A stretch of DNA of 64,000 bases from IMG/VR virus record IMGVR_UViG_3300025816_000002, one strand, 5' to 3'. Shown here piece by piece: positions 42,001 to 60,846 of this stretch (positions are counted from its first letter, which is position 1; each line of letters opens with the position of its first letter). Source of the DNA: a virus. The position numbers were made by a program, and so were the translations under genes. The notes under the pieces are model-generated. The model saw nothing but the letters and a program-made list of their open reading frames with translations, was not told the DNA's origin and did not search any database.

Positions 42001-44648
42001 CTGCTGAATTTGCTGCTAAAAGCGATGAAATGGCGGCTAAAGGCGCTGATTTTGACTTTATTGAGTTTAGTAAAGTTATGAATGGTCAAGAAGGTCCTTT
42101 ATTGAAAGTAGCTAAAATCATAGCGGAAAAAAGAGGTACTGATGATTTGTTTGTTTTAACTGCTAGGCCGCAAGATGCCGCAGGTCCTATACAAGATTTT
42201 TTAGCTGAACTAGGTTTAGATATTCCATTAGAAAATATTACCGGTTTAGCTGACGGAAACCCTAAAGCAAAAGCTGACTGGATGGTTGGTAAAGTAGCTG
42301 AAGGCTATAATGATTTTTACTTTGCTGATGACCACTTAGGAAATGTCAAAGCTGTTAAAGATGTATTTAATACTTTCGATGTGAAAGGTAAAGTGCAACA
42401 AGCTAAAATTAAATTTAGTAAAGGTTTAGATAAAGGCTTTAATGATATGATTGAGCGTCAAACCGGTACAGAATCTTTTAAAGAATTTTCTAAAGGGGTA
42501 GCGCAAAGAAGAGGTAAAAAGGTTGGAAAGTTTAAAATATTTGTTTCACCTTCGGCTGAAGACTTTAGAGGATTAACTCAATATAAGTTTGCAGGCAAAG
42601 GCAAGCAAGGTGAAGCTGATCAAAAATTCTTTGAAGAAGCGCTTATGGACCCTTATTTTAAAGGTGTTGCCGCACTAGAGTCCGCAAGAGAGGTTATAAA
42701 GAACGACACTAAAGCTCTTTTTAAAATATTTAAACCTGTTAAAAAGAAATTAAATAAGTTAGTTCCAGGTATTGATTTTACTTATGACGGCGCTGTTCGT
42801 GTTTATCTTTGGAATAAGGCAGGTATAGAAATACCAGGTCTTACTAAAAGAGATAACAAAAAACTAAATGATACTGTAGCAAACGATCCAGAGCTTAGCG
42901 CTTTTGCGGATGCTCTATTATTGGTATCCAAACAAGACACGTGGCCTGCGCCTACTGAATACTGGGAAGCAAAAACAACCTTAAGTGATTTAAACACTTT
43001 AACTGAAAAAACTAATAGAAAAGAATACTTACAAGAGTTTATTGAGAACGTTGACATTATATTTAGCGAAAAGAACTTAAATAAAGTTGAAGCTTTATAC
43101 GGTAAAGCATCAAGAACCGCTATTGAAAACGCTATATACGCTATGAAGACAGGTAGCAATAGCCCTAATCAAAACGGAGATGTTATAACAAACAGATGGC
43201 TAAAGTGGGTTAATAACTCTATAGGTACGATAATGTTCTTCAATAGAAGATCAGCATTGTTACAGTTAACATCTGCTACAAACTTTTTAAACTGGTCAGA
43301 TAATAATCCAGCTAAAGCAGCATTGGCTTTTGCTAATCAACCACAATACTGGAAAGATTGGGCTATGATATTTAACTCTGATAAATTAAAACAACGTAGA
43401 AGTGGTTTAAAATCTGATGTTCAAGAATCTGAAATAGCTAACGCAGCTAAAAACACGGAAGATAAAATAGGTTCAATCATAGCTTACTTATTAAAAATAG
43501 GTTTTTCACCAACACAAATAGCGGATAGTATCGCTATATCTTCAGGTGGTGCAACTTTTTATAGAAACAGAGTTAATACTTATAAGAAACAGGGGTTAGA
43601 CGTAAAAGAAGCAGAAGCAAAAGCTTTTGAAGATTTTAGTAAGCTTTCTGACGAAGCACAACAGTCAGGAGATCCTGCTTTAGTTTCTCAACAACAGCGA
43701 AGCGTTGCGGGTCGTCTTATCTTGTCCTTTCAGAATACGACTATGCAATACACTAGATTAATGAAAAAAGCCGGTCAGGACCTTGTAAACAGGCGTGGTG
43801 ATCCAAAGACTCATATATCTAAAATATTATACTATGGCGCTTTACAAAACCTCATATTTAACGCGTTATCTCAAACCGCATTTGCATTAATACCTGGCTT
43901 TGACGAAGAAGAGGATGAAGATGAAGCTAAAAGAGATGAAAAACTTGAAGCAAAGGCGTCTAGAGTTTTAAATGGTATGGTAGATTCTGTTATTAGAGGT
44001 ACCGGTATATACGGGGCTGTTGTCACTACTATAAAAAACACATTCAATACTTGGAAAAGAGAAGCTGATAAAGGTTTTAAAGGTGATCAAGCTAAGACGC
44101 TTCTTGAAGCAGCTAACATATCTCCAGCTATAGGATCTAAACTTAGGAAAATATACTCAGCAATACAAGCATATCAATTTGATAAAGCGGTAATGGAGAA
44201 GCATCCTTGGAGTGTAACTATAGACGGTAAGTTTAATCCTTCAGCTACATACAGCGTAATAGGTAGTTTAGCGTCAGCGACTCTTAACTTGCCATTAGAT
44301 AGAGCTTTAGCAGAAGCTAGAGGCGTAGCTGAAATGTTTGACAACAGGAACAGTGAAATGCAAAGAATAGCGTTAGCCTTAGGGTGGAGAACATGGAATG
44401 TTGGCGCTAAAAATGAAGAGTTTGATCTTATAAAAATGGAAGCTAAAGCTAAAAAGAAAGAAGAAGGCAAAATAAAAGCAAAAGAAACTAGAGCAAAAAA
44501 TAGAAAAATAAAAAAATTAGAAAATGAAAGAAGAGACAAAGCTTTTAATACTTTAAACTCAACTCAGCGTAAAGAAATCTTTCAAATGAATACTACAGAT
44601 AGAAAAGCGTATTTAGACAAAATAGCAAAACAAAAAGGTATAAAATAA
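36060..44648 (+). CDS. Giant polyvalent virion/ejection protein (zincin, HAD, ART-like domains)
   Basis: 2862 aa; AAHEFLH (38565-38579); DFDDT...LTAR...K...FADD HAD motifs (41508-42340) interrupted by an FHG...YFS...IVVF domain. Confidence 0.8.
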   Translation: MYIYDGSKYTEEEIQNAADKAGLSLEEYTSKNNITFEEEVDFPTSAVADADAVQQPMTASQAGYTEPKDTASSSVVGLSDSRIEEIEKNFKVGYYHPEQREAYKNWEETGKVDGSLLPDFNVDDYKKTERVINDDFRKEVEKIYQESAKGVKLDKFGSFDYDDKESIANFRDRAINKLIKENKTIQDKILPQATSQAKFEFDSANDKLKEKYGINSKNVSQENIDNYTKEATAQFNALVNSKVNSTPEFKQIITDFNSVMDETGRVGLEAFTRGKDWEGLMSLERGLQASNNPLSKLVFKFIQQTYAGGKQIKDGLDEAGVYGAIQMNERFISQLDDFKGKETNKIKNKYLEEGYTEEQASLGANEDIKSQKGWWRESEDDLANAFKFVKITSENQTIPSGVTKGTFQDYENSVNKKTEAEDLSIRGRLIDVADQQLATSAYGTDEFKNFMKGDNMLENSVSMVGKQLLPQMGIAILTAGVGNAIQMGSGMYVDGINNKIREKYGLSDEEEITQDMLKNVISDDEFIDVLVTKSVAGGFLAGQLERLGAGKLLSNLTNEGAASILRTGIKRYAQRVGGQTIRNFSTGATEAITEVLQEVLSASVAGGELDKEQLFEAGGTGFLVSAMTGLGGNVITQTVQEVKTLNRIVAGKLNPESAEAFFNTKSAEIDNILKTETNPSKIQELKEKKQSILDARNANLKIPSNFSTAAKEKIFNLVEEKQNIEKEIKNKDPELVRNQTDRIKEINTELNVISSLETQVKTVEKLTKDVKGLKVESLDNAEAISNFIEENNIDVDGKKASQQQGFIYQDPKTGEQIIIINKEVAAKEYAVNVAAHEFLHGLLFQTVKNSPETQVALGKSLNEYINKIDATQVKDSNFAKRLESYKDMDEATQSEEVLTLFSDAIATGDIQFNESVFTKIGDVIRRTLQNLGVKVKFNNGKDVYNFVKDYNKSIEKGKLTKAQKEISKKGATGSLVSEQVQESKPGIKESKQLTPEQDTQLRSDVAEIKEEASKGEALAKQFNKDFVKGAKQTRLENKVLQEIKPVVDRVVTNRTKALYDPIAEDAKKNVSRQMFQESMRSDIESMVFDEFTGKQDLEKFIVNRAFLRANNLAERLGIKGVEEGITKGLEAAEKVAVEETTAPKADKPKYRNILKSNTLPTETVNTIKDKVLKTVRTLKSKLDTKVSINKTVTPLVAEIKKNMGKQADIDFKKAMGGKKDAQLRRFLIKNKRVVLENMTTTWLMGAMPGAVQKQVNGSFTSDWQGKKIDREKTSTQQAGRTSGAEIVRRLPNAFKNLDDKTYLSYIIDESGAPIRGRKESLAKAMAEELSFDIFTTELQNENSDIRKAFEGNQEALGVVLVDNYIQEVTRDVERGTVKFSKSLSAEQKKTVLAGAEKLKNKLLNANITLTSKSLLPILIDTYPSIDEKTLKEFAKESIQVVQRYTSDKTIDRTKNVDFGKFLFEGISLKESNSNLIKFFNFAKNEVKSLGGLFNNNNLVAKQRELEFTYNNNLVEKEGADGLIKILRWGRGHQATSGKIGGGRNQSYAGNGDYIANNLNNIPGVDVVWNPKTNRINDVKFNGKSIEDWKKRIKSPAQKASGGIDQFKKEAKEREDAAREAWVYLTDYLQHVKDNGNAIDWTMTMMSLKSNMSSVLKAAAPVKYYFAGDVKGSLRYEHMIPTEYMVLKLTDYYFNGKKFDLNTLRDKYNVAIIPVSMDDNFNILTQSQMNSAFDPMTDPEFDRYYNENTFGFPNMYAIEALTGEYKGQIIGKSWVDFNNILKPQAAKMSKSVQTEQKAIDNARSVKWSKSTKKIRVFDFDDTLARTKSNVLYTMPGEVRVFHGGDIKSVKDIDGFVYFSEDQKQASAYAKGNQGEVSSFKIDETSLATEDQVFDVINALGIKPRAGYAVEESSLYELIDPRFEQSFSKKDLEKLAVALKRKGIKAARFTDTNISQGKNEGRETENIVVFDKKTVQEQAKLTAAEFAAKSDEMAAKGADFDFIEFSKVMNGQEGPLLKVAKIIAEKRGTDDLFVLTARPQDAAGPIQDFLAELGLDIPLENITGLADGNPKAKADWMVGKVAEGYNDFYFADDHLGNVKAVKDVFNTFDVKGKVQQAKIKFSKGLDKGFNDMIERQTGTESFKEFSKGVAQRRGKKVGKFKIFVSPSAEDFRGLTQYKFAGKGKQGEADQKFFEEALMDPYFKGVAALESAREVIKNDTKALFKIFKPVKKKLNKLVPGIDFTYDGAVRVYLWNKAGIEIPGLTKRDNKKLNDTVANDPELSAFADALLLVSKQDTWPAPTEYWEAKTTLSDLNTLTEKTNRKEYLQEFIENVDIIFSEKNLNKVEALYGKASRTAIENAIYAMKTGSNSPNQNGDVITNRWLKWVNNSIGTIMFFNRRSALLQLTSATNFLNWSDNNPAKAALAFANQPQYWKDWAMIFNSDKLKQRRSGLKSDVQESEIANAAKNTEDKIGSIIAYLLKIGFSPTQIADSIAISSGGATFYRNRVNTYKKQGLDVKEAEAKAFEDFSKLSDEAQQSGDPALVSQQQRSVAGRLILSFQNTTMQYTRLMKKAGQDLVNRRGDPKTHISKILYYGALQNLIFNALSQTAFALIPGFDEEEDEDEAKRDEKLEAKASRVLNGMVDSVIRGTGIYGAVVTTIKNTFNTWKREADKGFKGDQAKTLLEAANISPAIGSKLRKIYSAIQAYQFDKAVMEKHPWSVTIDGKFNPSATYSVIGSLASATLNLPLDRALAEARGVAEMFDNRNSEMQRIALALGWRTWNVGAKNEEFDLIKMEAKAKKKEEGKIKAKETRAKNRKIKKLENERRDKAFNTLNSTQRKEIFQMNTTDRKAYLDKIAKQKGIK

Positions 44649-45666: not shown

Positions 45667-47385
45667 TTAGCCATCACACGCTAAACAATCTTCATTCATA
45701 GCCTGAGCAGCTATGTCACCACGTAAAACAGATTCTGTCCTAGTGTAATACAAGGTTTTAACACCTTTCTTCCAGGCATCAAAATGAACTTTATTTAACC
45801 ATCTAGGTGTTGCTTCAGAAGGGAATGCTAAATTCAAACTAACTGATTGATCTACATACTCTTGCCTAAGACCTGCTTGATTAACTAACTCCAATTGATT
45901 GATCTCCTTAAAGGTTTTAAAAACTTCCTTGGCGGGTATGTCATGACCCAGGGTAATACCATCAAGCTCACTAATGTTTTGAACACTACCACCGTCAGCC
46001 AATATTTTATCCCATATTTCATTATTATTAATTTTCAGTTTTCTTAATAGCTTTACTAAAGTCGGGTTTTTCCTAATGAAAGTCCCTTTCGCACTTTGCT
46101 CTGTAAAAACATTTGCAGCCCACGGCTCAATACCTGGTGAAACATTACCGCTAAGCTTGCTATTAGAAACAGTAGGAGCAATAGCACGGAGATGAGTATT
46201 ACGCATACCGGTACCAATACACCATAAAGGCTCTCCATAAATTTCTGCAAGATCTCTTGAGGCTCTTTCACTTTCGATTTTAATCTGTGAAAATATTTTC
46301 CTAGTTTCAAACTGAGCAAGTAAACCTTCAAAAGGTAAACCCTTTTCTTGGAGATACGTGTGCCATCCAAGTACACCCAATCCGAGTGCTCTTCCTTTTT
46401 GAGCAGAACGAATGGCATTTTCAAAACCTCTAAGTCCTTTTGCTCTTTGAATAAATTCCTCCATAACCCCATCAAGAAACCACGTGGCGTGGTATATAAG
46501 GTTAGTGTCTTTCCATTCTTCATATTTAGCTAAGTTTAATGATGATAAACAGCATACGAAACTATGATTCTCATCTGTTGTTAATGTTATTTCTGAACAT
46601 ATATTAGTCATATGTACTTTCAGCCCGTTGTCTTTATATGCTTTTGGATTTGCTTTATTAACATTTCCTTTAAACATAATATACGGCTCTCCAGTTGCTT
46701 TTCGCTTTCTAAGTAATTTACTCCATCTAGATCTTGCTTCCTTATCTCCTTGTTCAAGCTTACGCATAAACTTGTCACCAACAATTGCGCACTGATGTAA
46801 GTTAAGCGATTGTCTGTTAACATCTCCTTTAGGTTCCCTGATTTCAAGCCACTCCTCGAAGTCATCATGTTCAATGTTGATATTAACTGAGGCAGCTCCA
46901 CGACGGACACTCCCTTGATTAGTTGCAAGAATTGTTGAGTCATATATCTTGCAGAAAGGTACGACTCCGTCTGATGTTCCATTACCTGTTATTCTAGCGC
47001 CAGCGGGTCTTATTTGATTTATACCGATACCAACTCCACCGCCGTGCTTAGCGAGTAGCATCATTTCTAAGTTCTTACTTCCTATGTCTTGTATAGAGTC
47101 AGCAACGTCGATACCAAAGCAACTGATAGGAAGACCGCGATCTGTACCAGTGTTGGAAAGTACTGGAGAAGCAAGACAAAGCCAACCATTCCAAATATAA
47201 TTAAAAAACGTTTCAGCCATTTCTGGTTTATATAACCTACGAGCAACTGTTTTAGCGACTCTTTGGTATGCTTCTCTAGGCGTTTCTCCGTCGAATAAAT
47301 ATCCCCCGGATATAGTCTTCTTGTATACGTCCGTATTACCCCACGCAGGGTAATCTTCTCCTTTGATCCATTCATTGTTCCACAT
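45667..47385 (-). CDS. nrdA: Class I ribonucleotide reductase alpha subunit, no ATP cone
   Basis: PISCF, TNICSEI, VCCLSSLNL, LYY, C-terminal CLAC; likely start MWNNEW at 47385 (TAATG coupling) rather than 47448. Confidence 0.93.
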   Translation of the reverse strand: MWNNEWIKGEDYPAWGNTDVYKKTISGGYLFDGETPREAYQRVAKTVARRLYKPEMAETFFNYIWNGWLCLASPVLSNTGTDRGLPISCFGIDVADSIQDIGSKNLEMMLLAKHGGGVGIGINQIRPAGARITGNGTSDGVVPFCKIYDSTILATNQGSVRRGAASVNINIEHDDFEEWLEIREPKGDVNRQSLNLHQCAIVGDKFMRKLEQGDKEARSRWSKLLRKRKATGEPYIMFKGNVNKANPKAYKDNGLKVHMTNICSEITLTTDENHSFVCCLSSLNLAKYEEWKDTNLIYHATWFLDGVMEEFIQRAKGLRGFENAIRSAQKGRALGLGVLGWHTYLQEKGLPFEGLLAQFETRKIFSQIKIESERASRDLAEIYGEPLWCIGTGMRNTHLRAIAPTVSNSKLSGNVSPGIEPWAANVFTEQSAKGTFIRKNPTLVKLLRKLKINNNEIWDKILADGGSVQNISELDGITLGHDIPAKEVFKTFKEINQLELVNQAGLRQEYVDQSVSLNLAFPSEATPRWLNKVHFDAWKKGVKTLYYTRTESVLRGDIAAQAMNEDCLACDG

Positions 47386-47651
47386 TATGTTATTGAGTGT
47401 ATTAACCAGGCTATAAGCCCATTTATATTTAAAGCTACTAGGTTCCATTGTTTTCTAGAGCTAGTTTGTATTACTACTAATATAAAACCTATTATGTAAA
47501 GTTTAGGTTCTATAGTCCATTGAGCAGCGATTAAAAAACCACTGCCCATATAACCTGCCCTAGTTGCTAGTCTCTTCCAAGGAGTCAAGCGCTTTTGCCT
47601 CACTAGCTTGTTTAGCAGCTTGTTCCTTAACTCTTTCGATTGCTTTATCAT
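47385..47651 (-). CDS. Small membrane protein
   Basis: Hydrophobic helices GFLIAAQW...LYIIGFILVVI...LVALNINGLIAWLI; true start probably later than 47651. Confidence 0.65.
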   Translation of the reverse strand: MIKQSKELRNKLLNKLVRQKRLTPWKRLATRAGYMGSGFLIAAQWTIEPKLYIIGFILVVIQTSSRKQWNLVALNINGLIAWLIHSIT

Positions 47652-47790
47652 AACCTGGCATGTTTTTTATTGTCTCTAATACTCCTAAAGCTATTGTAGC
47701 TGTTTGATTTAGTTCACTTATTAGTCTTTGATTGATTAACCCAAGGGTTTCAATCTTGTTTTTCATTTCTAGTAAAGTCTGTTCTTTCAT
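47560..47790 (-). CDS. Coiled-coil hypothetical protein
   Basis: 76 aa in operon orientation. Confidence 0.65.
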   Translation of the reverse strand: MKEQTLLEMKNKIETLGLINQRLISELNQTATIALGVLETIKNMPGYDKAIERVKEQAAKQASEAKALDSLEETSN

Positions 47791-47828
47791 ATAATTGTTT
47801 TATAATTTCATTATTGTTTATTGTTATG

Positions 47829-48797
47829 TTACCACATATCCTCAAAGTCTTCTCCTTCGTTCGCTTTCGAATAATCCGTCGGCCTAATAGCGAAGAAATC
47901 AGTATGAGTGACGCCCCCGGTAAGATGGTAAAACCAATCAAGATTACCCGCTGCTTTAGTGTCATACGCGAAATAGTTACCCAAGTCGACGTAACCAAGT
48001 TCCACCAGTTTTTCATTTGTTCTCTTTTTTATAAAGTGTTTTAAATCATTAGACGATATACCTTCTATATCACCCATCTCAAACATTTTGTCTATATACT
48101 TAACTTCAAGATCAACCATTGTTTCAGCAGCTTTTACTACATCTTCTCGACATAAACTCAATAATTGATTGTCTTCTTCGCACATATGACGAAATAATTG
48201 GCAACCCATTTTGCTATGTAATGATTCATCTCTTACAGACCATTTCATTTGCTGGCCGATACCCTTAAGTAAATTACGTAACTGAAAAGAATACAAGACA
48301 GCAAAAGCTGAATATAAACTAACTCCTTCAGCAAAGGCTGAGAATACAGCAAGCGACTTAGCAATACCAATTGAGTTATCACCATCATAAGAAACAAGGT
48401 TGTCAAAACGATCTGCCGTAGCAGGCTCGTGTAAAAATGCTTCATAATCTTCTAATTTTAATGTTTCGTTTAAATAACTATAAGCAACTGCATGAACAGT
48501 TTCTTGCGATCCAAACATCATTGCCATTTGTTGTATTTCGTGTTTAGGAAACCATTTAACAACTTTTTGAGTCCAATAGTCGGACACGGCGCATTCTGTC
48601 TGAGCAAACCCAAGTAAAATGTTTCCGACGAGGTTTTTTTCTTTTTCATTTAGTTTTTCTTTCCAATCTTTAATATCACTTTGCATTGAGATTTCAGTGT
48701 GTAACCAAAATGCTTGTGCTTGTTTCAACCAACCCTCAGTATAATACTCAGGGTATTCAAACGGTTTGTACGCTATGCGCTCATCAAACAAACCCAT
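47829..48797 (-). CDS. nrdB: Class I ribonucleotide reductase beta subunit
   Basis: FAQTE, QETVHAVAY, AEGVSLYSAF, VRDESLH diiron/dimetal motifs. Confidence 0.93.
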   Translation of the reverse strand: MGLFDERIAYKPFEYPEYYTEGWLKQAQAFWLHTEISMQSDIKDWKEKLNEKEKNLVGNILLGFAQTECAVSDYWTQKVVKWFPKHEIQQMAMMFGSQETVHAVAYSYLNETLKLEDYEAFLHEPATADRFDNLVSYDGDNSIGIAKSLAVFSAFAEGVSLYSAFAVLYSFQLRNLLKGIGQQMKWSVRDESLHSKMGCQLFRHMCEEDNQLLSLCREDVVKAAETMVDLEVKYIDKMFEMGDIEGISSNDLKHFIKKRTNEKLVELGYVDLGNYFAYDTKAAGNLDWFYHLTGGVTHTDFFAIRPTDYSKANEGEDFEDMW

Positions 48798-48949
48798 TAC
48801 TTGTAAACCGTTAATGCTAAGTCTACCAATGGCAAATACAATACGTGTATCGTTCTATCTGGATCTTCATACGATCTAAACCCTAACAATACTCCAGGGT
48901 AAAATCCTAATTCTAAACTCCATGCTGATTCATTTTCGTTTTCTTTCAT
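48797..48949 (-). CDS. 50-aa hypothetical protein
   Basis: MKENENESAWSLELGFYPGVLLG...; coupled overlaps on both sides. Confidence 0.6.
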   Translation of the reverse strand: MKENENESAWSLELGFYPGVLLGFRSYEDPDRTIHVLYLPLVDLALTVYK

Positions 48950-49116
48950 GTACAAATTATGTTATATCTTTTATGTAATTGTTCTATATCTATTGATCTT
49001 ACTTTACCTTTAGCTTCCCAGCTCCACTTTACGAACTTATCTATTTGACGTTCAGCGTACTTTTGTCTAGCTATTCGTTTTGCTTCAAAAGGATTAACCT
49101 TACTGTCTCGTCGCAT
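48946..49116 (-). CDS. 56-aa hypothetical protein
   Basis: MRRDSKVNPFEAKRIARQKYAERQIDKFVKWSW...; ATGA coupling to next gene. Confidence 0.55.
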   Translation of the reverse strand: MRRDSKVNPFEAKRIARQKYAERQIDKFVKWSWEAKGKVRSIDIEQLHKRYNIICT

Positions 49117-49532
49117 TCTTTTTGATTTTGTGGTTTATACAATGTTATACCTGGAAATTGTTCTACAATTAATCGTTTAAACAACTTCCATCGCATAGGA
49201 AACGATTCGTTAGCTCTACCTTTAGTTTCAATTATAAATGTATCGCCAATGAAATCAGGTGTATACTTAATAGGTAAGATACGTTTGCATCCTCTATTTT
49301 TGTAATCACCTTTGCCGTTAGCTTGTCTTTCGTATACTTCGTTTTCAAAATGAAAACCCGCATGCAACACAAACGTTTCTCCTTCGTACTTAGCTTTAAT
49401 TTTATTTTTTCTTAAAGCCATATACATATACTTCTCAAGACCCGAAGCAAAGTCGATACCATCATATGATACCTTCTTTGCTCTTACCGGTCCACGCTTT
49501 CCGCTCTTTCTTTTAAATGACTTCCGCATCAT
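49071..49532 (-). CDS. T7 endonuclease I-like junction nuclease
   Basis: FASGLEKY, YTPDF...IIETKG PD-(D/E)XK motifs. Confidence 0.8.
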   Translation of the reverse strand: MMRKSFKRKSGKRGPVRAKKVSYDGIDFASGLEKYMYMALRKNKIKAKYEGETFVLHAGFHFENEVYERQANGKGDYKNRGCKRILPIKYTPDFIGDTFIIETKGRANESFPMRWKLFKRLIVEQFPGITLYKPQNQKECDETVRLILLKQNE

Positions 49533-49773
49533 TTACTTGTAAGTCCATTAATAAATCTTCTTCAAGATCTGTGCTATAAACTTCTTTAGCTTTTTGTAAA
49601 TACAATACAGCATCCATAAGTTCTTCTTGTAAGTGATTAAGCCATTGAAACATTTCAGATGGATCTTTATCAAGAGTTACACCATATTTTTTAAAGCCTA
49701 CATCAGATCTTGACACAAACTTGTCGACTACACGTCTTACAACTGGATCTCTAAATTCTATTTCTTTTTTCAT
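49513..49773 (-). CDS. Small all-alpha NTP-pyrophosphatase-like protein
   Basis: RSDVGFKKYG...WLNHLQEELMDAVLY acidic helix. Confidence 0.5.
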   Translation of the reverse strand: MKKEIEFRDPVVRRVVDKFVSRSDVGFKKYGVTLDKDPSEMFQWLNHLQEELMDAVLYLQKAKEVYSTDLEEDLLMDLQVNDAEVI

Positions 49774-50543
49774 TATAATGTAGTTTTTACAAATGTTCCA
49801 TTAACCATTTTACCTTGCCTAGACTTTATTACGCTGTAAGCCGAAGCAATACACGTTTCTATCTTATGACCTCTAAGAGCTGCTAAGTTTGTTAATACTA
49901 CAACCATATCACCTATAGCATCAATTACTTCAGTCTCATCGTTTTTTAGAATAGCCTGCGCTAATTCACCTGCTTCTTCCATAAGTTTGATGTACTGAGT
50001 TTTAGAATCACCCTTATTATATATTCCTTTTTCATCTGCCCATATACGAATTAAATCGTATATACCAACTTCAGGCTCTTGCTTTTTATCTGTTCTGTTT
50101 TCTACAAATGCTTTAGCAAAAGCTTTGTTGTATACATAAGTTCTTTCAGGGTTAAACATTGACACTCGAGCATTTTTAATTATCCAAGGTATTGTTTTCT
50201 TAGTAATCTTAAAAGATCCAAAGTCAGTTTCCCAAGTTGTATCAATACTATCCATCAGCCTTCCTTTTAATTTATTCATTGGACAAGGAAATGTAGATGT
50301 TTGTTCTGTTGCGTTTATATTCATTTTATTAGATTTGATTAAGTTATTATATTTTTGTCTATCAACTTTGTAGCCATAAGACTTTTGAAGTTCTATTTCC
50401 ATGTCAGATATATAATTAATATCATCGCTAGTAAGTAGAACTTCGTATTCGTCTGGTGCATAGCCTTGCTGCTCCGTAACTCTATTATTAATATTACGTG
50501 TAACACCAATTTTTTTACCAGGAATATGATAAATTGTGTACAT
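49773..50543 (-). CDS. GIY-YIG-like nuclease fused to MazG-like NTP pyrophosphatase
   Basis: N-terminal IY..KIGVT....R...E; C-terminal KLMEEAGELAQA...IDAIGDMVVVLTNLA. Confidence 0.75.
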   Translation of the reverse strand: MYTIYHIPGKKIGVTRNINNRVTEQQGYAPDEYEVLLTSDDINYISDMEIELQKSYGYKVDRQKYNNLIKSNKMNINATEQTSTFPCPMNKLKGRLMDSIDTTWETDFGSFKITKKTIPWIIKNARVSMFNPERTYVYNKAFAKAFVENRTDKKQEPEVGIYDLIRIWADEKGIYNKGDSKTQYIKLMEEAGELAQAILKNDETEVIDAIGDMVVVLTNLAALRGHKIETCIASAYSVIKSRQGKMVNGTFVKTTL

Positions 50544-50551
50544 TATTATTT

Positions 50552-51397
50552 TTATTTACCAACACTTAACTCTGCTTTTATTGCAGGATAAGGATTGTAG
50601 TTAATTAATTCAATCTCAAAGCTATCAGGTATATTCAAGCCACCTAATATATTTGCACTAAGACCTTTGTCTAAGTGTAAAAATGGCAAAGCTCGCTTAG
50701 CTCTTCTTCTATATTCTTTTGCTTGATCTAAATGATTATTATATAAATGACAATCACCGAGTTGACCAATCAATTGACCAGCTTCAAGCCCAGCGCCTTT
50801 AGCTAACATCTCTAACAGTAAACCATACATCGCAATATCGTAAGGTAAACCTAAGAACACATCAGCGGATCTCTGTTGCCACATTAAATCTATAACACCG
50901 TTGTTAATATAAACCTGAAAAGCATAATGACACGGAGGTAAAGCCATATCCTTTAACTCGTGTGGAGCCCATGCGCTAACCATAAGACGTCTAGAGTCTG
51001 GGTTTGTTATTATGCTATACACAAGATTATAAAGCTGATCTACACCGTTAAAATTACGCCACTGTTTTCCGTACACAGGACCTAATGTTTCATCTGTTCT
51101 ACCTGAGCGTTCATAATCCGGTCGCCAGTACTTAACACCGTTATCCTCTAAGTATCTAAGATCTGTTCTACCTTGTAATATCCAAAGCAACTCTGTTCTT
51201 GCAGCATTAAAACTTATTTTCTTTCCTGTGAGTATAGGGAAGCCCAATGACATATCGTGTCTAATCGTTCTTCCGAAGACAGACTTCGTCCCAGTCCCTG
51301 TTCTATCTGATTTATCCAGACCTCTGTCGAGTATTTCTGATAATAATTTTTTGTATTCATTTTCTATGTTTGTCATAATAGTATTTACAATATTCAA
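50552..51397 (-). CDS. thyA: Thymidylate synthase homologue with Asn177->Asp, candidate dCMP (hydroxy)methylase
   Basis: ELLW, LGPVYGKQWR, DSRR, ALPPCH, QRSADVFLGLPYDIAMY, GDCHLY. Confidence 0.9.
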   Translation of the reverse strand: MNIVNTIMTNIENEYKKLLSEILDRGLDKSDRTGTGTKSVFGRTIRHDMSLGFPILTGKKISFNAARTELLWILQGRTDLRYLEDNGVKYWRPDYERSGRTDETLGPVYGKQWRNFNGVDQLYNLVYSIITNPDSRRLMVSAWAPHELKDMALPPCHYAFQVYINNGVIDLMWQQRSADVFLGLPYDIAMYGLLLEMLAKGAGLEAGQLIGQLGDCHLYNNHLDQAKEYRRRAKRALPFLHLDKGLSANILGGLNIPDSFEIELINYNPYPAIKAELSVGK

Positions 51398-51611
51398 ATA
51401 TTTTTAACCATATCTCATTTTTACCGTATGATTCTGGGCTTGTATGAGTTTTACCGTTGTTGATTATATCAACATACCATTCAGTCTTGTTCTTTGCTTT
51501 AGCAGATATACATATGTTATTTTTAACACACCATCTATAAGGTATCCAATCTGATTCTTTATGAGACGGGTTACCCATATTTATAGCTTTCTTTTTTTGA
51601 CCGCTACCCAT
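51357..51611 (-). CDS. Hypothetical protein
   Basis: 84 aa in operon. Confidence 0.65.
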   Translation of the reverse strand: MGSGQKKKAINMGNPSHKESDWIPYRWCVKNNICISAKAKNKTEWYVDIINNGKTHTSPESYGKNEIWLKIFEYCKYYYDKHRK

Positions 51612-53330
51612 CTACTCCCAAGGCATTTTACCGTCTGCTACATCTACAGGTTCGTGAGGAATAAAACAACCTGAGCTTGGCTCCCATTTAAAATGAGCTT
51701 CAGCACCATTCTCGCCTAAGTTTTGAAACTTGACCTTAAGAACTTTAGCTTTAACAGTCTTAGCTTCGTAGTCTCTATGCACTAATATACCATGATAAGA
51801 AGCATCATACCATTCACCACCACCTTTAATATTATACATTGTAGGCTCTTCAATCTTACCGTCTTGTGTTTTATACATCTTAGTTGGATGCGCTACAATA
51901 AACACCAGTACATCGTACTTCTTAGCAAAGATTTCTATCTTTTGTAAGTACTCCATTGTATATCTATTAACATCATCGGAACTTCCAACATCTCTAACTT
52001 TATTAAATGGATCTATTACTAAACACTTAATACCTTTACGTTTAACTAGCTCAGCGCCCTTCTTAAGTACAGACTCTAATGTATACCTCTCCATATCAAT
52101 GTGAAAGTAGTTACTATTGCAATGATCCGCTACTTGATTCCATCTATCGCCGCCAATATCTGCAGACGTAGGCATACCTTGCCAGGTTTTACGCATTAAC
52201 TTATGAGCGTGTAAATATGTTGGTTGATTTTCCGGAGACGCGAAAGCTGTTTTCCAGCCATAGTTAGCATTGTATCCGACAACCATTTGATCCACGAAAT
52301 CCGACTTTCCCGAAGAGGGTATGCCAGTGACAGTAATAAACTGACCAGTGTACGTCGAAAATATATCATCAAAGTTTTGTAAACCAATTTGAAAGCCAGG
52401 CTTAAAACCATTACGAACAAAGTCCGTGACTTCATCTTCGATATCCCTGAACGTCGTAACATTTTCCAACGGTACCGGTTTAGCGCTTGTGATTCTGCTT
52501 GTGAGTTTTTCTTTTCCATGTTTTAATAGATATTCATTAGCATCTTTACAATCTTCAAACGTTGCTATGTGACAAACTTCAGATCCCAACCTTCTAATCA
52601 ACTCTGTCTGTAAAGCTTGACCAGCTTCATCAGAGTCTACGGCTAATATAATCTTTTCTTTGTCTTCGAAATAATCAATACAACTATCTAGATAATCTAG
52701 GTTGTTTGTATTGAGCGTAGCTCCATTAGGTACAGATATTGCGTTTTCAATTCCAGCCTCATGCAATGCTAATACATCCATCTCGCCTTCAACTATAACA
52801 CAATACTCATAGCCTACAGTACTATCTATATTATAAAAGACTTTCTCAGCCCCTTTATATAATTTAAAGTTCTTTCTTCCATCTCGGTATTTAACATTAG
52901 TTAATTCACCGCCCACAAAATAATTGAACTTTATAACATTCTCGGTCTTACCGGTCTGTGGCATCCACTCAGGACCCTCACTAACTTTTAAGTCAATGAG
53001 AGTCTGAGCTGATATACCTCTTGTACTAAACCATTCTATAACCTTATCACCTACAAACTCCGGTCTCTCCGGATCCGCTTTGACTTCAGGTTTAACATAT
53101 ACTTTTTCAGCTTTACCTTTACGCTTATAAGTATGTAGTTGAAATGATTTACTACAGTTGTGACAAGTACCGAGACCCCGTTCCCAGTCATAAGAAGCGC
53201 ATTGCTTTTTATGATTCTTAGGTTTCCTGCAGGAGGCAGAGTCAGGGCATACACCCTGCTTCTTACCTTCTTCAAGCTTATGTACATTGAATTCATCAAT
53301 TACAAATCCATTGATCTCTGTTTCTTGCAT
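51612..53330 (-). CDS. T7 gp4/Twinkle-like primase-helicase
   Basis: Cys zinc-binding domain, VEGEMD and DSDEAG TOPRIM, TGIPSSGKS Walker A, VIDPFN, VAHP. Confidence 0.93.
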   Translation of the reverse strand: MQETEINGFVIDEFNVHKLEEGKKQGVCPDSASCRKPKNHKKQCASYDWERGLGTCHNCSKSFQLHTYKRKGKAEKVYVKPEVKADPERPEFVGDKVIEWFSTRGISAQTLIDLKVSEGPEWMPQTGKTENVIKFNYFVGGELTNVKYRDGRKNFKLYKGAEKVFYNIDSTVGYEYCVIVEGEMDVLALHEAGIENAISVPNGATLNTNNLDYLDSCIDYFEDKEKIILAVDSDEAGQALQTELIRRLGSEVCHIATFEDCKDANEYLLKHGKEKLTSRITSAKPVPLENVTTFRDIEDEVTDFVRNGFKPGFQIGLQNFDDIFSTYTGQFITVTGIPSSGKSDFVDQMVVGYNANYGWKTAFASPENQPTYLHAHKLMRKTWQGMPTSADIGGDRWNQVADHCNSNYFHIDMERYTLESVLKKGAELVKRKGIKCLVIDPFNKVRDVGSSDDVNRYTMEYLQKIEIFAKKYDVLVFIVAHPTKMYKTQDGKIEEPTMYNIKGGGEWYDASYHGILVHRDYEAKTVKAKVLKVKFQNLGENGAEAHFKWEPSSGCFIPHEPVDVADGKMPWE

Positions 53331-53347
53331 TTAATTTAATTTAATTG

Positions 53348-53434
53348 TTAGTCACTATCCCTGCACTCAGGGCATATATCACAAAAATCGTACTCTTCTT
53401 CGGACATGTCGTTCTCGCATATTTCGCAGTTCAT
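53348..53434 (-). CDS. 28-aa zinc-finger micro-protein
   Basis: MNCEICENDMSEEEYDFCDICPECRDSD; TAATG coupling to SSB gene. Confidence 0.65.
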   Translation of the reverse strand: MNCEICENDMSEEEYDFCDICPECRDSD

Positions 53435-53742
53435 TAAAACGGTAGATCATCTTCTTGTTGTGTTAATTGAGGAGCAGCTTGTCTTTGATCATCTCTAGGT
53501 GCAGCGGCTACGTTGTCCCCATTAGTCCATACTACTTTTACGTTACCTAAATAAACCTTTGCAGCTTTCGCTTCACGTTCTTCTTTGGTTTGTTCTACGA
53601 CTATCGGTCCTTGATTACCGAACTGGTCGACTTCATCATTGATTGTAATTGTAACACCTAAGTAGTTACCTTTTTTCCCTTTGTAAATCTTGTCTTTAGG
53701 GATGTCGTTTAAGTTAATGTTTGCTTTAATAATACTTGCCAT
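53434..53742 (-). CDS. ssb: Single-stranded DNA-binding protein
   Basis: Beta-rich core, flexible tail ending EDDLPF. Confidence 0.7.
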   Translation of the reverse strand: MASIIKANINLNDIPKDKIYKGKKGNYLGVTITINDEVDQFGNQGPIVVEQTKEEREAKAAKVYLGNVKVVWTNGDNVAAAPRDDQRQAAPQLTQQEDDLPF

Positions 53743-53754
53743 AATTTCCTTTTG

Positions 53755-54495
53755 TTATAAAGTCTTGTTAATAAAATAATTGTTTGGATCGAAATCCGGG
53801 TTGTCATAAAACAATTTGTATTGTTCTACGGCTTGTTGTACTTTGTCCTTGCCATTCTCATAAAAAGCATCTGAACAATCGAAGATACCAATTTGTCTAG
53901 TTTTCTTATCTATAGCGATAAATACTAAATCATAACCGAATAGCTTGCGATAAATATAAGCTTGACTGTCGTAATTGTAACGAAATGCAGAGCTTCTGAA
54001 TTTTGATATATCACTTGTTGTTTTAAGATCAATAACTAATTTCTCATCGTGATTAACGATATCCGCTTTACCTTTCCACATCATTCCTTCAATCTCACCA
54101 ATTCCAGGTTGTTCATACTCAACATTGATACCATTTATTAGGTCTCTACATACATTATTTGATTGCATTGTATCGATTAATAATTCTAGGTTGTCTACTT
54201 CATGTTGTAATAAACACATTTCGCCGCCTGAAATCTCTCTGTACGCTTTTGTATTCCTTGTAGTTGATTCGACTATTCTATACTTTTTGAGTTTTTCTGG
54301 CTCAAGTATTGCTGTGTGAAAGTAACCCCCAACTAAGAAGTTAATGTTTGGCTTTTGCGGCGTGCCAAGCGCAAGAGGATTTGTTAACAGTGTAGAAATA
54401 TCAGAATTACTTCTAAATTGTCGACCAAAATCACCGTAGTAATCTTCATCGCTTCTAAGCCTATCTAATATTTCTTTTTTGTTAAGGTCTTCCAT
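53755..54495 (-). CDS. PD-(D/E)XK exonuclease (RecE/exo VIII-like)
   Basis: KGKADIV, VIDLKTT, YNYDSQAYIY. Confidence 0.8.
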   Translation of the reverse strand: MEDLNKKEILDRLRSDEDYYGDFGRQFRSNSDISTLLTNPLALGTPQKPNINFLVGGYFHTAILEPEKLKKYRIVESTTRNTKAYREISGGEMCLLQHEVDNLELLIDTMQSNNVCRDLINGINVEYEQPGIGEIEGMMWKGKADIVNHDEKLVIDLKTTSDISKFRSSAFRYNYDSQAYIYRKLFGYDLVFIAIDKKTRQIGIFDCSDAFYENGKDKVQQAVEQYKLFYDNPDFDPNNYFINKTL

Positions 54496-54496
54496 T

Positions 54497-55045
54497 TTAT
54501 AGTGTTGTTAATTTAGTTTCTATTTCTTTTGAAATATTATACTTAGCTTTTATAGCTGATAACTTACCTCCTTTTTTAATAAATTCCACTGCTTTTGGAT
54601 AAGCTGGATCTTTTTCTGAGGTTAATGTGTTTTTTGCTACAGGTGCTTTACCGTGCGAATTTGTTGCATCGCTATCCGCCGTGTCATCAATTAAAAATAA
54701 ATTACCAAGCGCATATTTTTTACCGTAACTGGATGCACTACCAAACTTTTGAGGCATTTGCATACCTTTTTGGTTTAGGTCTACACCTACTATTGCAGTA
54801 GCATGTATAGCATAATCTGCATCGCCGTCGCTTATAGTTGCTGTTGTTTCCATTATTGGAAATGGATCGCTTGCAATTAATTTTTCATTAATTGTTACTG
54901 ATACTTTTAAATCTAATAAGTAAGGTTTAGTTGCTTCTAATATATCTTCAGCACTTCTAAAATTATACTTACCGAACGAGTTGTATCTACTCTTTTTTGA
55001 TTTGAATTTTGTCTGGATTGTTGCCAGCTTTTCGTTTAGTTTCAT
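54497..55045 (-). CDS. ERF-family single-strand annealing protein
   Basis: YNFRSAEDILEA, GSASSYGKKYALGNLF. Confidence 0.8.
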   Translation of the reverse strand: MKLNEKLATIQTKFKSKKSRYNSFGKYNFRSAEDILEATKPYLLDLKVSVTINEKLIASDPFPIMETTATISDGDADYAIHATAIVGVDLNQKGMQMPQKFGSASSYGKKYALGNLFLIDDTADSDATNSHGKAPVAKNTLTSEKDPAYPKAVEFIKKGGKLSAIKAKYNISKEIETKLTTL

Positions 55046-55050
55046 ATTAA

Positions 55051-55079
55051 TATAATTACGTATTTAGTTATTCTTTTAC
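55051..55079 (-). promoter_or_regulatory. Putative phage-sigma promoter copy 6 (replication operon)
   Basis: GTAAAA-N14-GTAATTATA on - strand, just downstream of the sigma gene. Confidence 0.55.
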
Positions 55080-55098
55080 GTTACTCTGTACACTTAAC

Positions 55099-55860
55099 TT
55101 AAAGGTAATCAAGCACTTGCGTGTGATCTACGTTGTCTATTAATGTTTGTACAGCTTTCTTTTTTATCTCAGAAACAGTTACATAATAACGTGTTCCCTT
55201 AATATCTAACAAGCTAGCTATCTCCTTAGCCGAGTGCTTATCGCAGTCTAAACCATAAGATAATCTGAGTACTTCATACTCCTTAGTATCTAAATGTTTT
55301 TGCATTAAGCTTTTCAAATATACATTCATCAACTGTATGTTATAAGGCTCAGAGTCATCAGGTATTTGATAAGCAAAATTCTCAGCATCTTCGTTTTCTT
55401 GATTAATATCTATACTTAAAAATATAGAATTAAAAAACATTTGCACCGCTGCTTTATCTTTTGGGTTTTTTCTTATCTCGTTTAGTTTATGTTCGGGTAT
55501 TCTAATGTTGCCTCTAGCCATATCTATTCGTCTTCTAATAGCTCCTTTGATACGTTTACTTAGAAATGATTTCAATGTTTTTTCAATGTCCTCTGAGGCA
55601 TTTAAAACTTCCCAATCTATTTTGTGTACAGCTTTAATTAAACCTTCAGAACCGCATTGTATTAAATCATTAATACTTAACACACCTGATGCTTGATCTG
55701 ATGTAGAAAACTTACGCGCTAAATTTTCAACTAATGGTAGAAATTTAACTATAAGCTCATCATTTGTATATTCATCCCAAAATTTACCTTCAAGATTTGC
55801 GATAGAGGTTTTAACATCTGCTTTGTACCTTAAATAGTTTTGTATATTATACTTTTTCAT
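55099..55860 (-). CDS. Sigma70-family RNA polymerase sigma factor
   Basis: FLPLVENLARK, DLIQCGSEGLIKAV, RIKGAIRR, IRIP (region 2); EVLRLSYGL...SAKEIASLL (region 4). Confidence 0.88.
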   Translation of the reverse strand: MKKYNIQNYLRYKADVKTSIANLEGKFWDEYTNDELIVKFLPLVENLARKFSTSDQASGVLSINDLIQCGSEGLIKAVHKIDWEVLNASEDIEKTLKSFLSKRIKGAIRRRIDMARGNIRIPEHKLNEIRKNPKDKAAVQMFFNSIFLSIDINQENEDAENFAYQIPDDSEPYNIQLMNVYLKSLMQKHLDTKEYEVLRLSYGLDCDKHSAKEIASLLDIKGTRYYVTVSEIKKKAVQTLIDNVDHTQVLDYL

Positions 55861-55953
55861 ATTGATCTATTTTTTCGAATGCTTCAGCCATAAGATTATC
55901 ATTAGCGTAATATATATTACCTATGCTTGCCATCCATTCATTAAAATCTTTTC

Positions 55954-56571
55954 TCATAATTGTTGGTTTAATAATTCTTTTTCTTTCTTAAGTTCATTAC
56001 TCATGTTTCTATGTATTGTTCTAGAAGAACAGTTAAGTAATGAGGCTAATGCGTTGATAGTGATCTTGTTACCGTCATCATTAATATCTAACATGCATTG
56101 GTATATGTCATCTTCAACTACTGATTTTGATTTACCCACAAGTCTGCCAACTATACTCATTTTTTCTCTAGGATTTAATCCTGAATATTCTTTGAATATA
56201 ATTTTTCTTAGCTTATTTTTAGGTGGAAATTCTAAATCATACATTAAAACATCGTATACCATTTGCTCATAATGCCATGCACTCATCTCAAATGTTACAA
56301 AACCATTTTGTTTATTGCATATAACTTTAGCAACTGTATGAAAGTCGTTTTGATCCATCTGTGGATTGAGATACCATAAAACAATTAAATGCCACTTAAG
56401 ACTTTTATATGTATTTATTTTAGCTTTACTTCTAAATAACTCGTAACACTCATGTGTACCATCCTCATAGTAATCTCCCCAGTCAAATGATTCTGATGGT
56501 TTATCAGTGATCGGAGATCTTCTATATATGATACGTCTCTTGTTTAAAAATTCAAGGTTTCTATGTGACAT
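55954..56571 (-). CDS. DNA-binding protein with C-terminal HTH (Rep/PriCT-like)
   Basis: ITINALASLLNCSSRTIHRNM helix-turn-helix; no catalytic primase motifs seen. Confidence 0.55.
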   Translation of the reverse strand: MSHRNLEFLNKRRIIYRRSPITDKPSESFDWGDYYEDGTHECYELFRSKAKINTYKSLKWHLIVLWYLNPQMDQNDFHTVAKVICNKQNGFVTFEMSAWHYEQMVYDVLMYDLEFPPKNKLRKIIFKEYSGLNPREKMSIVGRLVGKSKSVVEDDIYQCMLDINDDGNKITINALASLLNCSSRTIHRNMSNELKKEKELLNQQL

Positions 56572-56607
56572 TAGCCTACTACTATTATAATTAATTATCT
56601 ACCGTCG
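56566..56607. promoter_or_regulatory. Inverted-repeat element copy 3, overlapping start of the HTH gene
   Basis: TGACATTAGC-N22-TCTACCGTCG. Confidence 0.65.
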
Positions 56608-56713
56608 CATTTTCATGCTTAGCACCTAAAGTCTGGAAATACATTTGATTTATTTTTAATAAATCTTTATGCTGATGCTTTAGTTTTATAATCCACTTAC
56701 TTCTTTTTTCCAT
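56591..56713 (-). CDS. 40-aa hypothetical protein
   Basis: MEKRSKWIIKLKHQHKDLLKINQMYFQTLGAKHENATVDN; fills the gap. Confidence 0.45.
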   Translation of the reverse strand: MEKRSKWIIKLKHQHKDLLKINQMYFQTLGAKHENATVDN

Positions 56714-57177
56714 GGCCTAGTTTTTATACTTTCGTTTTTGTTACGCACACTGTGCTTTTCTTTTTCATAGTAGTTCCAATACGCTGTGACGCTATCACCG
56801 TCTACTTTATACTCGTCAGGCATACATTGAGGTGGTTCTTCAAAACCGTTATCAATCATAGTGCTTGGTGGATACATTAATGCTTCTCGGCATTTGCTTA
56901 TTGTTAAGTGATGTTTATTGTATCTAGCTGTGTATTCTTTGCCTAAGGCTAACATGTGGTCATATAACCAATTGTAATGGTGCACACTGCTTCGTACCCA
57001 TATAGTACTAGGATGATTTAAGTGTGCTTTTTTGTAAGGTACGTTATCACCGTTGTCATACACATGGTGTGCAGTACACAACATTTGAGCACACTCTAGT
57101 ATCATCTTAACCTTATGCTTGTCATAAAAGTAACTTGCCGCTACTTTGGGATCTTCGTGTAAATAAAATATATTCAT
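56686..57177 (-). CDS. Pyrimidine-dimer DNA glycosylase family protein
   Basis: MNIFYL...DKH.VKMILE.AQML...H.NHPSTIWVR...PPQCMP. Confidence 0.75.
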   Translation of the reverse strand: MNIFYLHEDPKVAASYFYDKHKVKMILECAQMLCTAHHVYDNGDNVPYKKAHLNHPSTIWVRSSVHHYNWLYDHMLALGKEYTARYNKHHLTISKCREALMYPPSTMIDNGFEEPPQCMPDEYKVDGDSVTAYWNYYEKEKHSVRNKNESIKTRPWKKEVSGL

Positions 57178-57284
57178 TAATATCTTTTTTTGTTTACTCT
57201 GTTATAATATTCATCTAGCAACATATCTGCTACTTCCATACTTATCATATTTTCGTTATATAATTTCCATATTAATTTACTCAT
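57177..57284 (-). CDS. 35-aa hypothetical protein
   Basis: MSKLIWKLYNENMISMEVADMLLDEYYNRVNKKRY; coupled at both ends. Confidence 0.55.
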   Translation of the reverse strand: MSKLIWKLYNENMISMEVADMLLDEYYNRVNKKRY

Positions 57285-58104
57285 AATTACGTAAAGTTTT
57301 ATACAGTGGATGACGATAGCTATTAGCTTTAGTACGCTCAAAATAAGTGAACGTAGCTCGTTTGCCAATATAGTCGTTAACATTATTTAGTATATCTCTA
57401 CGGTCTTGAAAGTTATAGCCTTTGCCGATAGGGCAACCGAACTCAATACCTTCATCGTCGATCATTAAGAACTTACCGATTAAGCCTGTGAACTTACCTT
57501 TGCCGGGTACATAGCCTACTATCGTCGCTTCGGTATCGTGAAAGTCTTTAAACTTTTGTAAGTTATAAGATCGTTTACATTCGTAAACACCGTTTAAGCG
57601 CAGTATAGAGCCCTCGTAGCCGGAGTCAATCCAGTTCTCGTGTATAGCATTTGCTGCTTGGCGATGTGCAACTCGAAATGTTGGTACATATTTTACACAA
57701 TAAGAATACAACGGAGCTGTAGATAAAAATTTCATACGTTGTTCGAATGAAAGACTAGTGTCTACAAAATCGTAACAGTGAAACTGCACGTAAGCAGATG
57801 ATTCAACTCTGTCTCCAGCTTGCGGTTTAGTCTTACGAACTAATGAAATAATTTTTTCGAAATCATTCTTTAATTCGTGGTTGTATAATTCACCGTCAAG
57901 TATAAGTTCAGGATACGCTTTGAATACCGGTTTTAGATTTTCAAGTATGTGATCTATATTTAGCCAGGGTTTACCTGTACGAGACCACGCACCGTCTTTA
58001 GATATTACACAACGGACACCGTCAAGCTTAGGCTGCATGAATACTTTCTCGGACCAGTCGACAGGTTTCTTGTCTACTTTGTATGCGAGCATAGGTTTTA
58101 TCAT
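57277..58104 (-). CDS. lig: Minimal ATP-dependent DNA ligase
   Basis: QPKLDGVR (motif I), LDGELY, YEGSIL, KFKDFHD, TFTYF. Confidence 0.92.
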   Translation of the reverse strand: MIKPMLAYKVDKKPVDWSEKVFMQPKLDGVRCVISKDGAWSRTGKPWLNIDHILENLKPVFKAYPELILDGELYNHELKNDFEKIISLVRKTKPQAGDRVESSAYVQFHCYDFVDTSLSFEQRMKFLSTAPLYSYCVKYVPTFRVAHRQAANAIHENWIDSGYEGSILRLNGVYECKRSYNLQKFKDFHDTEATIVGYVPGKGKFTGLIGKFLMIDDEGIEFGCPIGKGYNFQDRRDILNNVNDYIGKRATFTYFERTKANSYRHPLYKTLRNYE

Positions 58105-58609: not shown

Positions 58610-58630
58610 AATTTAATTTAATTTAGTTTA

Positions 58631-58670
58631 GTTATTATTATTATCGATTTGTATTCGTGTTTGTTTTGTA
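58631..58670 (-). promoter_or_regulatory. Early promoter motif copy 2
   Basis: TACAA-N6-CACGA-N8-CGATAAT. Confidence 0.75.
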
Positions 58671-58674
58671 AATT

Positions 58675-59280: not shown

Positions 59281-59282
59281 AG

Positions 59283-60201: not shown

Positions 60202-60211
60202 GTTTAATTAT

Positions 60212-60608: not shown

Positions 60609-60626
60609 ATTGTATTAGTTTTTAAA

Positions 60627-60666: not shown

Positions 60667-60668
60667 AT

Positions 60669-60839: not shown

Positions 60840-60846
60840 AATTATT

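Follow-up and report, generated by a model that had tools for sequence, protein, structure and literature searches.

Organization of the locus

The locus is a ThyA-family gene in the minus-strand arm (45667-64000) of the window, which here means the whole stretch of 64,000 nucleotides that was analysed (IMG/VR record IMGVR_UViG_3300025816_000002). This arm includes ribonucleotide reductase genes, a DUF1064 nuclease-like gene, an 86-aa ORF, a MazG fusion gene and the ThyA gene (Table 1), as well as a primase-helicase, a PDDEXK exonuclease-like gene, ERF, a sigma-factor-like gene (55099-55860), a DenV-like glycosylase and a ligase. A GroEL-like chaperonin of 517 aa (Cpn60 E 1e-56) and an 86-aa GroES-like co-chaperonin are encoded on the plus strand at 5593-7390. 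Two other plus-strand proteins, of 2862 aa (36060-44648) and 1518 aa (11040-15596), gave no Pfam match. A complete relative of 63.6 kb with terminal repeats is collinear with the window, which therefore holds essentially the whole genome, with a GC content of 35%.

Table 1. Coordinates of the ThyA-family gene, its key codons and the neighbouring genes in the window.
Feature	Coordinates	Strand	Basis
ThyA-family gene, predicted dCMP C5-methyltransferase (5-methyl-dCMP synthase)	50552..51397	-	PF00303, phrog_160 and solved-enzyme matches
Tyr90 codon (E. coli Ile79), beside Trp80, clade-specific	51128..51130	-	aligned-sequence counts
Ala144 codon (E. coli Asn134), WN-to-WA change	50966..50968	-	SAWAP instead of SAWN(P/V)
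Leu153 codon (E. coli Leu143), methyl- versus hydroxymethyl-correlated residue	50939..50941	-	Leu in all family members examined
Catalytic Cys156 codon (E. coli Cys146), in MALPPCH motif	50930..50932	-	invariant in 151/151 aligned sequences
Asp179 codon (E. coli Asp169; Asn in 5-hydroxy-dCMP synthases)	50861..50863	-	Asp in 151/151 aligned sequences
Asp187 codon GAT (E. coli Asn177, pyrimidine-specificity residue)	50837..50839	-	alignment to solved enzymes, homologue counts
MazG/PRA-PH fusion, 256 aa, predicted dCTP pyrophosphatase	49773..50543	-	start 8 nt past the ThyA stop
Conserved 86-aa ORF, syntenic with the cassette	49513..49773	-	present in 75/80 loci
Class I ribonucleotide reductase, large and small subunits	45667..48797	-	PF02867 E 1.8e-92; PF00268 E 3e-56

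The ThyA homologue and its catalytic residues

The ORF has 281 aa when read from a TTG start at 51397; a length of 274 aa is common among close homologues, which makes the ATG at 51376 (274 aa) the more probable start, and this start would move the residue numbering by 7 and leave the Cys-Asp spacing unaffected. The product is a ThyA homologue, as the first-pass annotation had proposed, and it is full-length, matching PF00303 (Thymidylat_synt) end to end (profile positions 2-266 of 266, E 1.6e-84, 283.6 bits against a cut-off of 24.3). It also matches TIGR03284 (275.5 bits against 108) and phrog_160 (E 1e-98) and aligns with solved thymidylate synthases (best E 9e-73), the alignment being gapless across the active site. 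Its identity to cellular enzymes is 43-47%. The strict NCBIfam equivalogs stay under their cut-offs, with 296 bits against 327 for NF002497 and 271 against 325 for NF002496.

In E. coli numbering, the phosphate-binding Arg21, Arg126', Arg127', Arg166 and Ser167 are present together with Cys146, Glu58, Tyr94 and Asp169, and likewise in the family members examined. The window protein also retains Trp80, His147, Gln165, Gly173 and the deoxyribose contacts His207 and Tyr209, and has Ala142 and Leu143 unchanged; Cys168 is replaced by Ala and Asn177 by Asp. The 151 aligned sequences of Table 1 are the query and 150 cluster representatives, the best from an exhaustive search.

Aspartate at the pyrimidine-specificity position

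In dUMP-specific thymidylate synthase (EC 2.1.1.45), Asn177 hydrogen-bonds to O4/N3 of uracil. The window protein has Asp187 here, in the motif QRSADVFLGLPYDIAMY of its translation, and in the gapless alignment with solved thymidylate synthases this residue stands opposite the Asn of PFNIASY. The first reading of the sequence had placed the Asp codon at 50839-50837, 31 residues past the catalytic Cys; both details hold, with a GAT codon and a spacing of 31 from Cys156 in PPCH to Asp187. Asp occupies position 177 in all 121 close proteins (82-97% identity) and at each of the 80 IMG/VR loci fetched (65-92% identity), and the Asn177 that marks the dUMP-specific enzyme is found in none of them. 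Its codon is GAT at 73 of the 80 loci and GAC at 7. Contigs from four independent public runs span the codon, and among the differences listed none falls on it. Because Asp is fixed across 121/121 proteins and 80/80 loci, with both GAT and GAC in use, Asp187 is, judged by its conservation, a selected residue and not a product of chance or assembly error. The residue is thus kept in relatives, and the earlier concern that it could be a one-off variant or an assembly error is ruled out by this conservation and the codon variation.

Predicted substrate and product

The change of Asn177 to Asp turns ThyA into a dCMP methylase, according to mutagenesis as cited in PMC8670742, and the MetaGPA study showed Asp177 homologues to be enriched among cytosine-modified virome contigs (PMC8670742). 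Further residues have been related to the product. Twelve residues surround C5 at up to 6 A; of these, Leu143 is correlated with methyl products, Asp or Glu in its place accompanies hydroxymethyl products, as in T4 gp42 and MilA, and D169N is the mark of flavin-dependent 5-hydroxy-dCMP synthases (PMC13326640). In the alignment made here, T4 gp42 has Asp in column 143, in agreement with that report, and also Asp at the specificity position, as the first-pass annotation had stated.

The window protein has the residue signature of the dCMP C5-methyltransferase of the Xp12 type (EC 2.1.1.54), namely D187, a non-acidic L153 and D179. The features of a T4-type dCMP hydroxymethylase are not found, since position 143 is Leu and the C-terminus is complete, and Asp179 is kept where the 5-hydroxy-dCMP synthases of the RB69 gp48 / DLP3 gp80 type have D169N. 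Because Asp177, Leu143 and Asp169 are all present, a methyl product is predicted, and by the published code the window protein is most likely a 5-methyl-dCMP synthase, neither a hydroxymethylase nor a hydroxylase. An earlier assignment as candidate dCMP methylase/hydroxymethylase is narrowed in this way: its methylase half is supported by the three residues, and its hydroxymethylase half is made unlikely by the lack of an acidic residue at 143.

Activity of such homologues has been demonstrated by expression in E. coli, where 5mdC was formed by the Xp12 protein and by five of seven Asp177 homologues from viromes (bioRxiv 2024.12.05.627091). It is quite likely that the window enzyme methylates dCMP. 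The fuller model proposed here, that the enzyme makes 5-methyl-dCMP and that the phage DNA contains 5mC, is considered probable at a lower level of confidence; the two of the seven predicted virome methylases that yielded no 5mdC (bioRxiv 2024.12.05.627091) count against it.

Phylogenetic placement and lineage-specific features

Position 177 is Asn in 136, Asp in 13 and Ser in 1 of the 150 best cluster representatives. A FastTree phylogeny was built from these representatives, nine family members, Xp12, PaMx74 and T4 gp42. The window protein sits in a 12-row clade in which every sequence has Asp (the family with P0122 and P0172; SH-like support 97), and Xp12 and PaMx74 lie outside it. The Asn and Asp forms are mixed across the tree, with about 11 state changes, at least three of them forced by well-supported branches. 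By this placement, together with the identities of 43-47% to cellular enzymes and 28-30% to the Xp12 and PaMx74 enzymes, the window family is a lineage separate from the characterised methylases and nearer to ordinary ThyA, and its enzyme is predicted to work like that of Xp12 without belonging to the Xp12 lineage.

Two changes accompany Asp in the window clade: Ile79 to Tyr, and a YW.x(D/N)YExSGR loop that replaces the W83 region. Position 79 is Ile in 142 of the 151 aligned sequences, and Tyr here is confined to the query, P0122 and P0172. This substitution and the reshaped 81-89 loop change the folate side of the pocket, which counts against the proposed model.

Two other features that the first-pass annotation had listed with the switch are real and belong to the lineage instead. 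The WN-to-WA change is present in 119 of 121 close proteins and, among the 151 aligned sequences, in the query alone; it is confined to the near subclade, the more distant Asp177 family members retain Asn134, and residue 134 does not belong to the 12-residue shell described around C5 (6 A; PMC13326640). The C-terminus, ...AELSVGK, is two residues longer than the usual ...A.VA(V/I). Nine Asn177 or Ser177 representatives also have an xVG(x) tail, which is missing in the family member L080 (end ...PLAV), P0122 and P0172. Neither the WA change nor the C-terminal GK tail tracks Asp177, and both were rejected as parts of the switch.

The MazG/PRA-PH fusion and neighbouring genes

The fusion gene combines an N-terminal T5orf172/GIY-YIG-like domain with a C-terminal MazG/PRA-PH all-alpha NTP pyrophosphatase domain. 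The latter matches PF03819 (MazG; E 7.9e-6, 26.5 bits against a cut-off of 22) and PF01503 (PRA-PH; E 4e-5, 24.4 against 21.3), and the MazG-like PHROG families phrog_1992 (E 3e-31) and phrog_715 (E 4e-28). Its EEAGE and DAIGD metal motifs, which have the EExxE/DxxxD pattern, are invariant in 13 family members. A search of PDB sequences with the fusion returned one weak MazG-like match, 1vmg, beside spurious repeat matches to the designed 'Pizza' proteins.

The gene lies immediately downstream of ThyA in 77 of 77 loci having room for it, so that D177 and MazG do co-occur, a point that the first reading had set out for checking, and the sister-clade Asp177 genes have a MazG protein within 2-3 kb. 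The co-occurrence of thymidylate synthase and PRA-PH has been reported as typical of modified contigs in the MetaGPA work, and the ThyA-MazG pairing matches this published signature of cytosine-modified virome contigs.

For the N-terminal domain (residues 1-60), the T5orf172/GIY-YIG-like match is weak and does not reach the cut-off (E 0.005); Y2, Y5, H6, G13, R21 and E49 are invariant. By analogy with T4 endonuclease II, this domain may be a nuclease against unmodified DNA.

MazG genes had at first been named in the plural; one neighbour is demonstrably MazG, and the 86-aa ORF next to it has no MazG profile similarity. As a second MazG this ORF was rejected, with an hhalign probability of 0.4% against the fusion and no Pfam or PDB support. 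It has W44, H47, Q49, E50, E51 and D54 invariant; an Atlas search gave unnamed viral clusters only, and no Pfam or PDB relative was found.

The sister-clade contigs (L093:2070-3119 and L095:2976-4022, with ThyA proteins P0172 and P0122) encode upstream of ThyA a protein of about 348 aa with GGACT (gamma-glutamyl cyclotransferase-like) and faint GATase_6 matches, which might be a further base-tailoring enzyme in that clade. No such GGACT protein turned up in the scan of window ORFs.

Gene content for nucleotide metabolism and replication

Each of five complete relatives has exactly one ThyA-family gene, and none of them has a dCMP-family deaminase, DHFR, DNA polymerase A or C5 DNA methyltransferase. 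Similarly, scans of the window found neither a dCMP-family deaminase nor DHFR, and the Pfam scans gave no polymerase domain; the phage apparently replicates with the host polymerase. The sole Walker A motif in the window belongs to the primase-helicase, and the complete relative G003 has this motif and one match inside a giant structural protein. The Walker A search of the window and G003 found no recognisable P-loop dNMP kinase, which counts against the proposed model, as a dedicated dNMP kinase is used by T4 (PMC13326640) and in the published in vivo assays (bioRxiv 2024.12.05.627091). The window ORFs scanned have no Pfam match to a glycosyltransferase, a TET/JBP dioxygenase or a carbamoyltransferase, in keeping with an earlier expectation of an unglycosylated base.

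Relatives and distribution

The phage is podovirus-like, with a P22-like portal and a crAss muzzle C-domain, and the hosts of its nearest cultured relatives (42-50% portal identity) are Flavobacterium, Cellulophaga, Maribacter and Tenacibaculum. It is probably an uncultured marine phage of Flavobacteria-type hosts. The nearest virus record, a 26-kb fragment (G001), has no ThyA gene. A megablast search with 5 kb around the ThyA gene gave no match among GenBank phages, and tblastn of the window protein against phage records gave nothing above 48% identity; by these searches the window ThyA family appears to be absent from cultured phages. The nearest cultured relatives (Elemovirus, Maribacter phage Panino, Cellulophaga phi10:1 and the Manatee Spring podovirus) lack a ThyA-family gene, so no isolate serves as a proxy, and this too counts against the proposed model.

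The protein is encoded in at least 241 IMG/VR loci, and 21 of the public runs listed, from 17 studies and mostly marine metagenomes, contain all or part of the stretch. Runs X16 and X18-X20 carry coded organism names, not metagenome names, and hold 43-45% of the words of the stretch (46001-56000); contigs of X16 and X20 match it at about 90-99% identity. These runs could be host-associated samples or cultures with a relative of the phage.

Comparison with characterised systems

The dCMP C5-methyltransferases of Xp12 and PaMx74 share with the window protein the ThyA fold, Asp177, the catalytic Cys, Glu58, Trp80, Tyr94 and Asp169, and similarly their genes lie in a replication/nucleotide-metabolism arm beside ribonucleotide reductase genes. 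The product of the Xp12 enzyme, 5-methyl-dCMP, is the one predicted for the window enzyme (bioRxiv 2024.12.05.627091). However, the window protein has only 28-30% identity to the two enzymes and falls in a separate clade, and position 147 is His where Xp12 and PaMx74 have Pro; the low identity and this His count against the proposed model. It also lacks their insertion before the catalytic Cys and, unlike them, retains a ThyA-like C-terminus. In Xp12 and PaMx74 a conserved string (L087:44377-46980 and L086:39165-42126) has an annotated hydrolase (HAD-type in Xp12), the ThyA homologue, a dCMP-family deaminase and DHFR, whereas the ThyA neighbour in the window is the MazG fusion. In contrast to Xp12/PaMx74, the window phage lacks a deaminase, a DHFR and a DNA polymerase A, a further point against the model; PaMx74 has an annotated DNA polymerase, and none was found in the window phage.

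The MetaGPA virome homologues (PMC8670742, bioRxiv 2024.12.05.627091) have, like the window, Asp177 and a PRA-PH/MazG-type pyrophosphohydrolase nearby. The tested set was selected for an adjacent dCMP-family deaminase (bioRxiv 2024.12.05.627091), which the window family lacks, and a search of the MetaGPA supplementary files for motif peptides of the window family gave no match.

Like the engineered E. coli ThyA N177D and L. casei TS N229D, which methylate dCMP (as cited in PMC8670742 and PMC13326640), the window protein is an otherwise canonical ThyA with a single Asn-to-Asp change at this position. In contrast to these mutants, it is a natural, long-conserved variant that also has the Ile79-to-Tyr change and the reshaped 81-89 loop, and its near subclade has in addition Asn134 to Ala and the two-residue tail.

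T4 follows the same logic with gp42 and the gp56 dCTPase, a dCMP-specific ThyA homologue and a pyrophosphatase that converts dCTP to dCMP, roles that are predicted for the window pair. T4 gp42 has Asp at the specificity position, as in the window, and differs by its Asp at 143, the absence of the C-terminal segment and an identity of 21%. Furthermore, T4 encodes a dNMP kinase, its own DNA polymerase and glucosyltransferase, none of which was found in the window phage.

Proposed pathway and alternative explanations

Here it is proposed that the phage ribonucleotide reductase would supply deoxycytidine nucleotides and that the MazG-type pyrophosphatase would convert dCTP to dCMP, which would clear the competing canonical nucleotide and feed the methylase. 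The ThyA homologue would then use dCMP and methylene-tetrahydrofolate to produce 5-methyl-dCMP and dihydrofolate, and host kinases or an unrecognised phage kinase would continue to 5-methyl-dCTP. The phage primase-helicase would recruit the replicative polymerase of the host, which would incorporate this nucleotide; 5-methylcytosine would replace much or all of the cytosine, and the resulting DNA would be protected from restriction. The substrate and product of the enzyme, the specificity of the MazG domain and the phosphorylation step are predictions from the genes, as are the presence and extent of 5mC in the virion; genome-wide replacement of cytosine, as suggested in the first-pass annotation, would be the furthest extent.

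The missing deaminase, kinase and polymerase genes make full replacement of cytosine less certain and raise a rival, a cytosine-first thymidylate route, in which 5-methyl-dCMP would be mostly deaminated to dTMP by a host dCMP/dCTP deaminase, with little or no 5mC in the virion. The cassette would divert dCTP towards dTTP to serve a genome that is rich in AT (35% GC), in a phage that has no other thymidylate synthase and no phage kinase found for 5-methyl-dCMP, and deamination of 5-methyl-dC nucleotides to thymidine nucleotides has been proposed for Xp12-type phages (bioRxiv 2024.12.05.627091). However, the deaminase of the published cases is phage-encoded and adjacent, and the five complete relatives have none; the ordinary dUMP route yields the same product and would leave the fixed Asp177 unexplained, and MetaGPA links Asp177 homologues to modified virion DNA (PMC8670742). 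This route is considered unlikely. It is slightly less likely that the gene encodes a working thymidylate synthase, or a dual dUMP/dCMP enzyme, in which Asp177 is tolerated. The cited mutagenesis, in which N177D shifts the preference to dCMP (as given in PMC8670742 and PMC13326640), argues against such an enzyme, as do the invariance of Asp over 80 loci down to 65% identity and the fixed MazG/PRA-PH pairing, which fits the modified-contig signature. Its support comes from the remaining ThyA catalytic residues, canonical down to His147, with 43-47% identity to cellular enzymes, from its being the only ThyA-family gene of the phage, and from the interleaving of Asn and Asp on the tree, where about 11 changes suggest that the switch is easy.

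A dCMP hydroxymethylase, or an enzyme with another C5 product (5hmC, 5hoC) that unrecognised genes might decorate, is very improbable. Asp177 is common to T4 gp42, the many window ORFs without a Pfam match (including those of 1518 and 2862 aa) leave room for tailoring enzymes, and a GATase/GGACT protein lies near the gene on sister-clade contigs. Nevertheless, the window protein has neither the acidic residue (Asp or Glu) of hydroxymethylases at 143, which is Leu, nor the Asn of 5hoC synthases at 169, which is Asp; it has the C-terminal segment absent from T4 gp42, and the window has no Pfam glycosyltransferase, kinase or GGACT protein. The preferred reading is still that of a 5-methyl-dCMP synthase whose product enters phage DNA. 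An extended form of it is doubtful: a two-gene replacement of C by 5mC, in which a ThyA-derived dCMP methylase and a nuclease-like/MazG fusion would work with the CMP kinase, NDP kinase and polymerase of the host, would be the smallest known pre-replicative base-replacement module, separate from that of Xp12 and common in marine Flavobacteriia podoviruses.

Significance for marine phages

The residue code, the enzyme activity and the association with viromes have already been published, enzymes of this kind are known from Xp12, PaMx74 and the MetaGPA homologues, and the window adds no new principle. Its contribution is a further lineage of the switch, separate and ThyA-like, in a large environmental family where the gene set is very small and the fusion partner is fixed. 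If the model is true, ordinary ThyA has undergone the Asn-to-Asp switch on more than one occasion, the switch can work with far fewer genes than in Xp12, and a large, geographically widespread group of marine phages has 5-methylcytosine DNA. This would bear on how these phages escape restriction, as well as on methylation-sensitive library preparation, nanopore base-calling and the reading of 5mC signals in viromes.
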